19,964 bases of DNA from Methanosarcina sp. (GTDB lineage Archaea > Halobacteriota > Methanosarcinia > Methanosarcinales > Methanosarcinaceae), in assembly GCF_028693135.1 (NCBI RefSeq), contig NZ_JAQUVZ010000060.1:1-19964 (forward strand). Direction: 5' to 3'. Each line of letters opens with the position of its first letter. Position 1 is the stretch's first letter. A program made the translations under genes and the position numbers. The notes beneath the pieces were generated by a model. That model had not been told where the DNA came from and searched no databases. It worked only from the letters and a program-made list of their open reading frames with translations. This document shows positions 14,032 to 16,260 of this stretch, in pieces.

Positions 14032-14121
14032 TCAGTCGATGAGGAGGAGGGACATCGGCTCAGGCTGCCCTTTGATAGGAAATACGATGGGCATTTCTGC
14101 TTCTGCAGCCGTCTTTTTCAT
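14032..14121 (-). pseudogene. Displaced 3' fragment (last 29 codons plus stop) of the DUF2284 gene split by the IscB element
   Basis: The minus strand reads MKKTAAEAEMPIVFPIKGQPEPMSLLLID*. Joined to the V183 codon (15712-15714), it restores a continuous 212-aa ORF: ..GINV|MKKTAAEA..LLLID. Confidence 0.6.
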
Positions 14122-15711
14122 CTTACCTCAGCAGGAGACCCCTTCCTCGACATTTCCGGCTTGCCGGAAATGGCAGGTAGGGGAGGAATGCGTCATCTGT
14201 ACCATCTGAACTAATGTTGTACTCCTCGCACTCAGTCTCCTGCATTTTTTCTTAACATTAACACTATCTGAAATTTTGTTTCCGAATATATCTGAGATTG
14301 AAAAATACCCGGATGACCGTTTGCCACGAATGAACCCGATCCCGTTTTCCGTTTTTACAATATCAAATTTCCTGAGCCCAAACAGCTTTCCGGTAGGTAT
14401 TTTCTTCTCTGATCTCTTCCCTCTCCGCTGCTGATAATCTCCCGCAGGAACGTTTCTTTTTAGAAAAACCGAATCTTCTACCTCTACATTCTGATCGTCC
14501 CTGCAACAGATAGCAACAGCATCAAAGTAATGTGTTTTTAACAACTTCAAGACCTGCTCTCTCCTGTACTTTGTTTCGTACCCGAAAGTCTCTGCAAAAC
14601 TCCAGCCGGATTTCCGGATTTGGGATTTGAGGATCCCGATTTCAGTTGCATGTTTTGTTTTTGACTTTTTCCCTGAAAGCTTGAATTCTCCATTGTGCAG
14701 GGCTTTGTGACAGGTTTCACAAAGCGTAATCAGGTTTTCCGGTGTATCTGTCCCCTTCTGTGACCTGAAAACAATGTGATGGCAATGTAGCCGGAAATCC
14801 TTTGACTTTCCCCTGCATTGCTGGCATGTGTAGCCGTCCCGATCCAGAACGTAAGCTTTGACATTGTAGAAGCCTTTAAGGTCCCCTTCCTGATACCCAA
14901 CCCCGGAAACCTCCGGATTTGTTATTTTGTGAATATCAAAGGAAGCAAGCTCTACCTTCCACCCGGTTACAGGAAGCAGGGATTCCAAAAACCTCTTTTC
15001 CCGGAAATGAGACTCAAGTTTGCTTCGGATAGAAGGAGCTAATCTCCCTTCTTTCCTTGAATTTCCCCGGTTATCAAATCTTGCAGGTCTATACCTTGTT
15101 TTTCTACCTCTTCTGTTTCTCCGGTACATCTTCCGTTGTTCCATCTTTTTCAAAACGTTTTCTCTAAGGTAGATTTCGGACTGATACAACACTTTTCCGT
15201 TAGCAATGGCTGCACAGCCCACTACCTTAGAGCCGGTATCCATCCCTGCAGTTACAGGTTGAGTATACCCACTGCTTCCGAAAAGTAACTTGATGGTGAA
15301 TGGAGTATTTCGGACCACTTTTGCCTTGCCTGCTTGCAGTAGCTTTCTGGCTTTTGAAGGTTTACAGGGCATAAGTGGTTTTTTGTTTTGATTGATTACG
15401 AAAACTAACATATAGTTTTCCTCCGAAGAGTTATGCGTATCTGAATTGTGGAGTCAATTCCGGAATCCGTCTTCCTCTCGATCTGATATGGAAAGGTTTA
15501 ACGATGCAAGCACTGTCCCTACCTCTCAGGACTGTTTAACCGGCATCCTTAGAGCCTTAAACTGAGGCGGCATTCAAGGGTAACTATTTCTTTCCTATCG
15601 TTTACCGATTTTCTATTGCTCCTTATCGGTGATCTGGTCAACCAGGGCTTGTTAGACAAGCCCCTTCCTCAAAAACCTGAGCCGTTAGGAAGGTTTTAGG
15701 GAGGGGTAATT
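14122..15711 (-). mobile_element. IS200/IS605-superfamily non-autonomous element encoding IscB plus omega-RNA (no tnpA), ~1590 bp, boundaries +/-1 nt
   Basis: Boundaries are inferred from the in-frame rejoining of the two DUF2284 halves. Sub-terminal hairpins lie at both ends: CATTTCCGGC-TT-GCCGGAAATG (14151-14172) and GGGCTTGT-TAG-ACAAGCCC (15645-15663). TTCAT (14117-14121) abuts the 14122 end. Confidence 0.7.
14128..15411 (-). CDS. iscB: IscB (OMEGA RNA-guided nuclease; RuvC split by an HNH insertion, PLMP N-terminal domain)
   Basis: KKPLMPCKPSKARKLL is the PLMP motif. GMDTGSK is RuvC-I. The Arg-rich bridge helix is YRRNRRGRKTRYRPARF. The HNH region is CQQC..HCHHIVFRSQKGTDTPENLITLCETCHKALH. 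THYFDAVAI is RuvC-III. The C-terminal region FDIVKTENGIGFIRGKRSSGYFSISD is TID-like. 427 aa. Confidence 0.85.
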   Translation of the reverse strand: MLVFVINQNKKPLMPCKPSKARKLLQAGKAKVVRNTPFTIKLLFGSSGYTQPVTAGMDTGSKVVGCAAIANGKVLYQSEIYLRENVLKKMEQRKMYRRNRRGRKTRYRPARFDNRGNSRKEGRLAPSIRSKLESHFREKRFLESLLPVTGWKVELASFDIHKITNPEVSGVGYQEGDLKGFYNVKAYVLDRDGYTCQQCRGKSKDFRLHCHHIVFRSQKGTDTPENLITLCETCHKALHNGEFKLSGKKSKTKHATEIGILKSQIRKSGWSFAETFGYETKYRREQVLKLLKTHYFDAVAICCRDDQNVEVEDSVFLKRNVPAGDYQQRRGKRSEKKIPTGKLFGLRKFDIVKTENGIGFIRGKRSSGYFSISDIFGNKISDSVNVKKKCRRLSARSTTLVQMVQMTHSSPTCHFRQAGNVEEGVSC

Positions 15712-15727
15712 GACATTAATTCCAACA
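15412..15727 (-). ncRNA. Candidate IscB omega-RNA (scaffold ~15412-15711 inside the element, putative 5' guide from flanking DNA 15712-15727)
   Basis: A ~300-nt non-coding gap lies directly 5' of iscB, the canonical omega-RNA position. It is rich in helices (minus strand): CCTTCC..GGAAGG, GGGCTTGT-cta-ACAAGCCC, ACCGAT..ATCGGT, long-range AACGAT..ATCGTT, CCTCAGTTTAA..TTAAAC..CTGAGAGG, and CTC-TTCG-GAG just before the GGAGG RBS. Confidence 0.5.
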
Positions 15728-16260
15728 GCGTGTTCCGGGATCCTTGCCATGTTTGAGTGGACGCAGGTTCCCTTTTCCACGTTGCACTTTTCACAGAGCC
15801 TGCACGAACCGTTAACAAATGCGACTGCAAAGGTGAAACCCTCGTTAAAGGCAGTCTTTTCAAGTTCCAGCATTGAGAACAGTATTTTTTTGCTGTAGTC
15901 GAAATAATCAGACCAGAATTTTCCTGCCTTTTCCCTTGTTTCATCAGATTCGGCAGGGTCAAGCCAGGTCTTATAAGGGGCTTTTGCTATCTCTTCATCT
16001 GCAACTGCAGGAGACCGGAACTTGACAAGCAGGGCATACCTGTACTCTTTTAAGATCTCTCTGAATTCATCAACTGTAGGAACGTGGGGGGGACAGGTCA
16101 GTTTTTTCCCGTATCCCACACACCCTCTGCATTTTAAAACTACCCTCTTCTCTACAAACACGCTGTAGGTTGGGATAATTTTTGCATCGACTGCTCCCAG
16201 TTCCAGGGCTTTTTTTGCAAGGAATTCAAGTTCATCAGGTTTTATATCTTGATTTGGCAT
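15685..16260 (-). pseudogene. DUF2284-family predicted metal-binding protein, truncated by IscB-element insertion (native sequence 15712-16260; last 8 codons plus stop come from the element)
   Basis: CRGCVGYGKKLTCPP and GSCRLCEKCNVEKGTCVH are the Cys clusters typical of DUF2284. The ORF leaves the family pattern right after GINV and ends NYPSLKPS* within the element end. Confidence 0.65.

Follow-up and report, generated by a model that had tools for sequence, protein, structure and literature searches.

The window analysed here is a stretch of 19,964 nt of a Methanosarcina genome (assembly GCF_028693135.1, contig NZ_JAQUVZ010000060.1), which corresponds to contig C89 of a source genome comprising 89 contigs and 4.22 Mb. 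Between positions 14032 and 16260 its minus strand carries a gene of the DUF2284 family in two parts. The parts are separated by a non-autonomous IS200/IS605-type element of the IscB class (ISC element), 1,593 nt long and occupying positions 14122-15714 of the top strand. The element contains an intact iscB gene and an omega-RNA scaffold, shares the orientation of the gene it interrupts, and has neither terminal inverted repeats nor a target duplication. It is inserted directly 3' of a TTCAT motif in the host DNA (14117-14121, plus strand). Protein families were assigned by Pfam profiles and the omega-RNA by an Rfam model, IscB was compared with protein chains in PDB, and hairpins were evaluated by DNA folding.

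The 5' part of the DUF2284 gene (15715-16260, minus strand) consists of native codons 1-182 and ends in ..AVGIN. Uninterrupted orthologues were found by searching the genomes of 59 Methanosarcina species, and 19 intact ones were extracted; this part is collinear with them up to the AAT or AAC codon preceding the junction. The disrupted frame then runs for nine codons (VNYPSLKPS) and a stop through the end of the element (15685-15714, minus strand), a segment that is element DNA in all 26 related copies. The resulting 191-aa open reading frame (ORF; 15685-16260, minus strand) matches PF10050 at 128.5 bits, covering profile positions 1-135 of 161. The 3' part (14032-14121, minus strand), taken from the ORF list, comprises native codons 183-211 and a stop. 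This 29-codon ORF reads MKKTAAEAEMPIVFPIKGQPEPMSLLLID and matches the C-termini of the 19 congeneric orthologues. Joining the two parts raises the Pfam match to 140.6 bits and extends it over the entire profile, 1-161 of 161. The original prediction, made from the letters of the stretch, that an IscB element had split a DUF2284 gene and that the minus strand from 14121 encodes the missing C-terminus, is thereby borne out. The joined product of 211 aa is 93% identical to its nearest orthologue. Signs of decay were sought in both halves, and neither stops nor frameshifts were found; the halves carry five private substitutions, against zero to five in the orthologues.

The ends of the element were defined by comparison with its siblings. 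The sibling set includes three further full-length copies in the source genome, 20 copies in G009, a congeneric Methanosarcina genome represented by one contig of 4,139,808 bp, and partial copies at contig ends; 25 left flanks and 26 right ends could be scored. The three full-length copies of the source genome share 96-97% identity and have ends identical to those of the window copy, and all four read TTCAT/YTTACCTCAGC...GGGGTARTTGAC/unrelated flank, where the slash here and below marks an element boundary or insertion point. The 20 copies in G009 have the same ends. TTCAT precedes 24 of the 25 left ends, the one exception being ATCAT, and all 26 right ends finish in TTGAC ahead of diverging flanks. 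In the window, TTGAC occupies positions 15710-15714 (plus strand) and constitutes the transposon-encoded motif (TEM), marking the cleavage site of the right end. TTCAT, also present in the uninterrupted orthologues, represents the target or transposon-adjacent motif (TAM); read on the gene strand it becomes ATGAA and takes in the native Met183 codon. The first helix of the HEARO model of omega-RNA begins at GUC, positions 15714-15712. The shared sibling ends and the start of the HEARO match at 15714 indicate that the element spans 14122-15714, and that the supposed Val183 codon (15712-15714) is element DNA, the omega-RNA scaffold starting with these three bases.

Two independent empty sites, at which the flanks rejoin exactly, agree with these boundaries and uphold the originally proposed IS200/IS605-type insertion without target duplication. 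One is provided by the DUF2284 orthologues. All 19 encode a protein of 211 aa reading ..PEHAVGIN/MKKTAAE.., with no Val at the junction, and the underlying DNA is ..GGAATYAAY/ATGAAR.. in every case; the restored empty site of the window copy is CGCTGTTGGAATTAAT/ATGAAA. The other belongs to the sibling copy on contig C1, whose empty site in G009 is identical on both sides of TTCAT/TTATAG, over more than 60 nt each. It reads ..GTATTCAT/TTATAGCC.., as the boundaries TTCAT/...TTGAC/ predict, and not TTCAC/TTAT or TTCAT/GAC... For the sibling on contig C58, an empty site was matched only in a 78%-identical relative, where the junction is too diverged to be informative. The excision junction predicted for the window copy is ..GGAATTAAT/ATGAAAAAG.

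Two alternative placements of the element ends need to be weighed against this evidence. The original prediction ended the element at 15711, within one nucleotide, which would make the element 14122-15711, leave GTC (Val183) as host DNA fitting the family pattern, restore an ORF of 212 aa (..GINV/MKK..) and give the protospacer as TGTTGGAATTAATGTC. Deletion of 14122-15711 does leave an open frame of 212 aa with a full-length Pfam match. Deletions of 1,590 and 1,593 nt are both multiples of three, however, so in-frame rejoining cannot separate the two right boundaries. The separation is made by other data: the Val183 codon is missing in all 19 orthologues, each of the 26 right ends of the siblings has GAC ahead of its diverging flank, helix 1 of HEARO starts with GUC at 15714, and GAC is absent from the C1 copy's empty site. 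The end at 15711 is thus refuted by orthologues, sibling right ends and the C1 empty site, and retains practically no probability; the true end lies 3 nt away, beyond the stated tolerance of one nucleotide, and the restored product is the 211-aa ..GIN/MKK... The proposed alignment of the joined flanks with intact orthologues confirmed the predicted C-terminus (MKKTAAE..) while removing the Val codon, and the proposed comparison with other copies confirmed the left end and TTCAT while moving the right end to the TTGAC at 15714. The placement of the protospacer next to the omega-RNA scaffold holds as well, but the site itself should be read as CGCTGTTGGAATTAAT/ATGAAA and not as TGTTGGAATTAATGTC/ATGAAA.

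The second placement follows the GT/GA target listed for the Methanosarcina elements ISC2-1_ML and ISC2-2_ML in Table 1 of Kapitonov et al. (PMC4810608). It would set the element at 14120-15712, with the empty site AAT-GT/GA-AAAAG (..N V K K..). Lying one base apart from the N/ATGA model, it also gives a gene of 211 codons, but the codon at the junction is ATG and not GTG in all 19 orthologues, and the empty site of the C1 copy in G009, in a perfectly identical stretch of 120 nt, reads TTCAT/TTAT rather than TTCAC/TTAT. A further argument against it is that in the IS200/IS605 mechanism the TAM falls fully outside the element and the TEM fully inside it. The same paper also reports that an assumed GT/GA target of the Microcystis elements was revised to N/ATGA after empty sites had been found. 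With ATG in the orthologues and the C1 empty site both disfavouring it, a GT/GA target appears very improbable here, and a correction of the 2016 target for Methanosarcina ISC elements to N/ATGA(A) is suggested.

The iscB gene (14128-15411, minus strand) is an intact ORF of 427 aa with a GGAGG sequence, resembling a Shine-Dalgarno site, 8 nt upstream of its ATG. IscB proteins are OMEGA RNA-guided nucleases ancestral to Cas9, in which an arginine-rich bridge helix splits the RuvC fold and an HNH nuclease is inserted into it. The N-terminus and split RuvC domain match PF14239 (RRXRR) at 218.9 bits over profile positions 1-174 of 174, with the PLMP motif contained in ..KKPLMPC.., and the HNH domain matches PF01844 at 43.2 bits. 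IscB chains in PDB are matched with E values from 1e-34 to 1e-27. The corresponding blocks are GMD58TG and GIDPG, CHHIV and YHHVV, ENLITLCE and ENRVGLCE, VELASF and LELNRF, and HYFDA and HYLDA. The catalytic residues of both nucleases thus align, including D58 of RuvC-I, H211/H212 of HNH, the ENxxxLC block and the HYxDA block of RuvC-III, in keeping with the catalytic motifs initially reported for this protein. In comparison with OgeuIscB (PDB 7XHT, 7UTN and 8CSZ; E = 3.7e-33 for 7XHT), the domain order is the same and the RuvC and HNH blocks are aligned, whereas the protein is 427 aa long against 496 aa, and neither the top alignment nor any tabulated best stretch goes past residue 304, so that no alignment was seen for the putative TAM-interacting domain, which makes up the C-terminal third. 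The retention of the 427-aa ORF in three of the four full copies, despite 3-4% divergence in DNA, suggests purifying selection on IscB. Proteins of this IscB family are found in 13 of the 59 Methanosarcina genomes, with 31 matches and up to 97% identity in G009. Gammaproteobacterial IscBs, including those of Aliiglaciecola litoralis (L064), Candidatus Thiomargarita nelsonii (L066) and a further locus (L075), are 62-67% identical to the window protein, whereas a third IscB family of the source genome itself shares only 34-36% identity with it; a transfer of the element family between the domains is suggested by this. For ISC elements of Marinobacter and Halomonas, Kapitonov et al. list N/ATGA targets (PMC4810608).

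The omega-RNA scaffold occupies positions 15412-15714 of the minus strand. It consists of a HEARO match at 15714-15469 (RF02033; 117.5 bits, where the gathering score is 83 bits, E = 4e-24, model positions 1-211 of 211), which ends 57 nt before the iscB ATG on the same strand, and a 3' extension from there to the start codon of iscB. Its first hairpin contains a 27-nt insertion relative to the Rfam consensus. With iscB and the omega-RNA both read from the bottom strand, the scaffold forms the right end of the element and the guide corresponds to the DNA beyond that end. By the HEARO start at 15714 and the element boundary, the putative guide-encoding flank is the host DNA directly 5' of the scaffold (15715-15730, minus strand), 5'-CGCTGTTGGAATTAAT-3' on the iscB strand; its length of 16 nt is carried over from the original prediction, and its function as a guide is proposed from published IscB systems. 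Each end of the element bears a subterminal hairpin on the plus strand. The right-end hairpin, CCCCTTCCTC...GGGAGGGG (15660-15707), folds as DNA at -12.4 kcal/mol (z = -3.25), and the left-end hairpin (14139-14183), with CCCCTTCC.. opposite ..GGGGAGG at the base of its stem, folds at -18.1 kcal/mol (z = -3.5). The stem bases of the two hairpins are alike (CCCCTTCC and GGGAGGGG). Within its 3' portion, the omega-RNA region accommodates a 44-nt hairpin module (GGACTCCAACTTCGTGAAGTTGGAGTGTTACAGCGTAGCTGGAA) that occurs in 0, 1, 2 or 4 tandem copies per element copy. Its site is equivalent to 15451/15452 of the window, where the number of modules is zero; examples are found at C9:8463-8507, C37:4888-4973 and C3:90560-90775, and in the G009 copies of 1639 and 1681-1683 nt.

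The arrangement resembles that of the IscB element of Geobacillus stearothermophilus (ISGst), whose scaffold is likewise derived from the right end, and whose guide is located beyond the element and needs an outside promoter for its transcription (Meers et al. 2023, bioRxiv 10.1101/2023.03.14.532601). The two elements are both non-autonomous, TnpA being supplied in trans to ISGst and putatively also here, both IscBs have the catalytic Asp at position 58, and PATE-like derivatives occur in the same genome in both cases. The TAM is TTCAT in both; the TEM is TTCAC in Geobacillus and TTGAC here. This identity with the GstIscB motif and the sibling left flanks substantiate the TTCAT at 14117-14121 as the TAM candidate it was first taken for. 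The sequence ATGAAA likewise fits the NWRRNA TAM of OgeuIscB (PMC12660989), as the original prediction had stated. The Methanosarcina element differs from ISGst in its archaeal host and in being known from sequence alone.

We consider it highly probable that the element at 14122-15714 is a non-autonomous IscB-type member of the IS200/IS605 superfamily, inserted 3' of TTCAT in the DUF2284 gene, and that it would have been moved and guided along the following lines, which are taken from Meers et al. 2023 and Kapitonov et al. 2016. A Y1 transposase TnpA encoded elsewhere in the genome would have moved the element as single-stranded DNA by 'peel and paste'. Transcripts started at the DUF2284 promoter would run into the element and yield an omega-RNA with the 5' guide CGCUGUUGGAAUUAAU. 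Together with this RNA, IscB would cut the empty allele CGCTGTTGGAATTAAT/ATGAAA each time TnpA excised the element, and the element would be regained by recombination with a filled copy, so that homing would serve the retention of the element. What the DNA itself shows is the insertion with its boundaries, its motifs and its intact parts; for transcription, RNA-guided cleavage, excision and homing we rely on inference from the cited work. IscB elements are biased toward the orientation of the upstream gene (Meers et al. 2023, 10.1101/2023.03.14.532601). Among 24 copies, the 150 nt upstream of the omega-RNA contain open frames in sense in 7 cases, in antisense in 3, in both orientations in 3 and in neither in 11, a crude test of orientation bias that is too weak to use.

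Several observations weigh against a currently active element, and they are also what would be expected if the insertion were a fixed fossil, that is, a real past event whose product no longer excises, with a silent or inactive pair of IscB and omega-RNA and no homing at present. The nearest sibling in either genome is only 97.0-97.3% identical to the window copy, which consequently is not a fresh jump from any sampled donor and may be old and possibly immobile; a divergence of about 3% from every sampled sibling suits the fossil well. The description of the insertion as caught in the act and datable is not sustained by this distance. The insertion can be placed as younger than the split from the nearest sampled species (DUF2284 protein 93% identical), and no more finely. 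The iscB gene of the C58 sibling is already frameshifted, and the element family is partly decaying in that respect. The element itself has no tnpA. The source genome holds three loci of Y1 TnpA (PF01797), two of them, on contigs C36 and C77, with open frames; matching ends were sought at all three and none were demonstrated, the C77 locus alone having nearby sequence that resembles the left and right ends. Selection on the DUF2284 locus also seems weak, the orthologue having been degraded independently in other species. Set against the fossil are the iscB ORF, its GGAGG, the catalytic motifs, both hairpins, the TAM, the TEM and the omega-RNA with its full score, all of which are intact, and the retention of the 427-aa ORF in three of four full copies at 3-4% DNA divergence. 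On balance a fossil seems rather unlikely, though it deserves serious consideration next to the guided, TnpA-mobilised element described above.

The degradation of DUF2284 elsewhere is seen in G009, where the orthologue (L119, G009:C1:2579300-2581400) is a pseudogene. It carries frameshifts, and its 5' end and promoter region have been swapped for 587 nt of unrelated DNA (positions 161-747). The replacement holds a transposase-like ORF fragment and, judged by eye, looks like a piece of another insertion sequence; an omega-RNA was sought in these 587 nt and none was found. The IscB insertion site is empty in this orthologue, and the TAM is mutated there to ATTAAA, with ATT in place of ATG. The orthologue also carries stops in a few other species, and the DUF2284 gene appears dispensable. 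On the iscB strand, the left terminus and TAM (window 14119-14130, minus strand) read TGAGGTAAG/ATGAA in every sibling copy. This sequence joins the stop codon of iscB to a GAGGT resembling a Shine-Dalgarno site, after which an ATG faces out of the element. In the window this outward start codon coincides with the native Met183 and shares its frame with the 29-aa tail of DUF2284, translation of which could in principle be coupled to that of iscB.

The element family matches ISC2_ML of Kapitonov et al. 2016, who reported about 30 copies in Methanosarcina lacustris Z-7289 and by empty-site analysis defined ISC2-1_ML, with 12 copies at 96%, and ISC2-2_ML, with 10 copies at 97% identity (PMC4810608). 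Like these, the window element belongs to a multicopy, non-autonomous, IscB-only group of about 1.6 kb in the same genus, at about 96-97% identity. Kapitonov et al. also noted that termini are shared with TnpB-only IS605B elements, which carry their gene on the other strand (PMC4810608); the window element shares its termini in the same way, with the TnpB-only element at 18718-20068. The differences are the target, given as GT/GA in the paper while the two empty sites described above support N/ATGAA (TTCAT/ on the top strand), and the DUF2284 insertion itself, which is situated in another species-level genome and is not described in PMC4810608. The window copy is thus a further instance of a known family, mechanism and motif, all already published, and no new principle emerges from it. 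Its value lies in being a precisely bounded natural insertion of an archaeal IscB with an empty site known from 19 relatives, in a natural TAM that 25 independent insertions define (5'-ATGAA-3' when read on the iscB strand, with A as the next base in 18 of the 25, corresponding to T before TTCAT), and in a ready pair of guide and target for a compact 427-aa mesophilic archaeal IscB.

HEARO matches above the gathering score number 45 in the source genome, against about a dozen iscB ORFs. Many of the matches represent mini-elements of a few hundred nucleotides without IscB, composed of the TTCAT/left end, a short spacer, a complete scaffold and the ..TTGAC right end; examples are C36:29233-29640, C88:11400-11766, C84:17700-18077 and C3:90600-91015. 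A third type of omega-RNA, about 205 nt long and scoring 135-160 bits, is present in about 24 copies, only three of which adjoin an IscB, of the distant family with 34-36% identity. Tentatively, and with rather less than even probability, these elements might form an active archaeal homing system, in which few IscB copies serve in trans an approximately three-fold excess of IscB-less omega-RNA mini-transposons, some with 0 to 4 tandem 44-nt modules, and in which the DUF2284 insertion would be one live guide driven by a host promoter.

The TnpB-only IS605-type element of the window extends on the plus strand from about 18718 to C89:20068. It encodes a TnpB of 367 aa, has TTTAT before its left end, and finishes at the right in ..GGGGTAGTTCAC (..TTCAC). 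Its left end is related to and aligns with that of the IscB element, the hairpin sequence being its own. About 20 further right ends of the TTCAC type are scattered through the source genome. Mini-elements of about 70 nt at C58:34373-34434, C60:22081-22150 and C26:14479-14547 consist of a hairpin of the left-end type followed directly by the right-end terminus (..GGGAGGGTTAGTTCAC), and look like minimal PATE-like derivatives of the same superfamily. A DUF2284 paralogue at C67:3987-4625, 34% identical to the interrupted gene, is situated about 600 nt from an omega-RNA and IscB of the distant third family (C67:5244-6736), which is probably a coincidence. At the beginning of the window, positions 48-123 of the plus strand match domains V and VI of a group II intron (RF00029, 58.3 bits, E = 2e-9).

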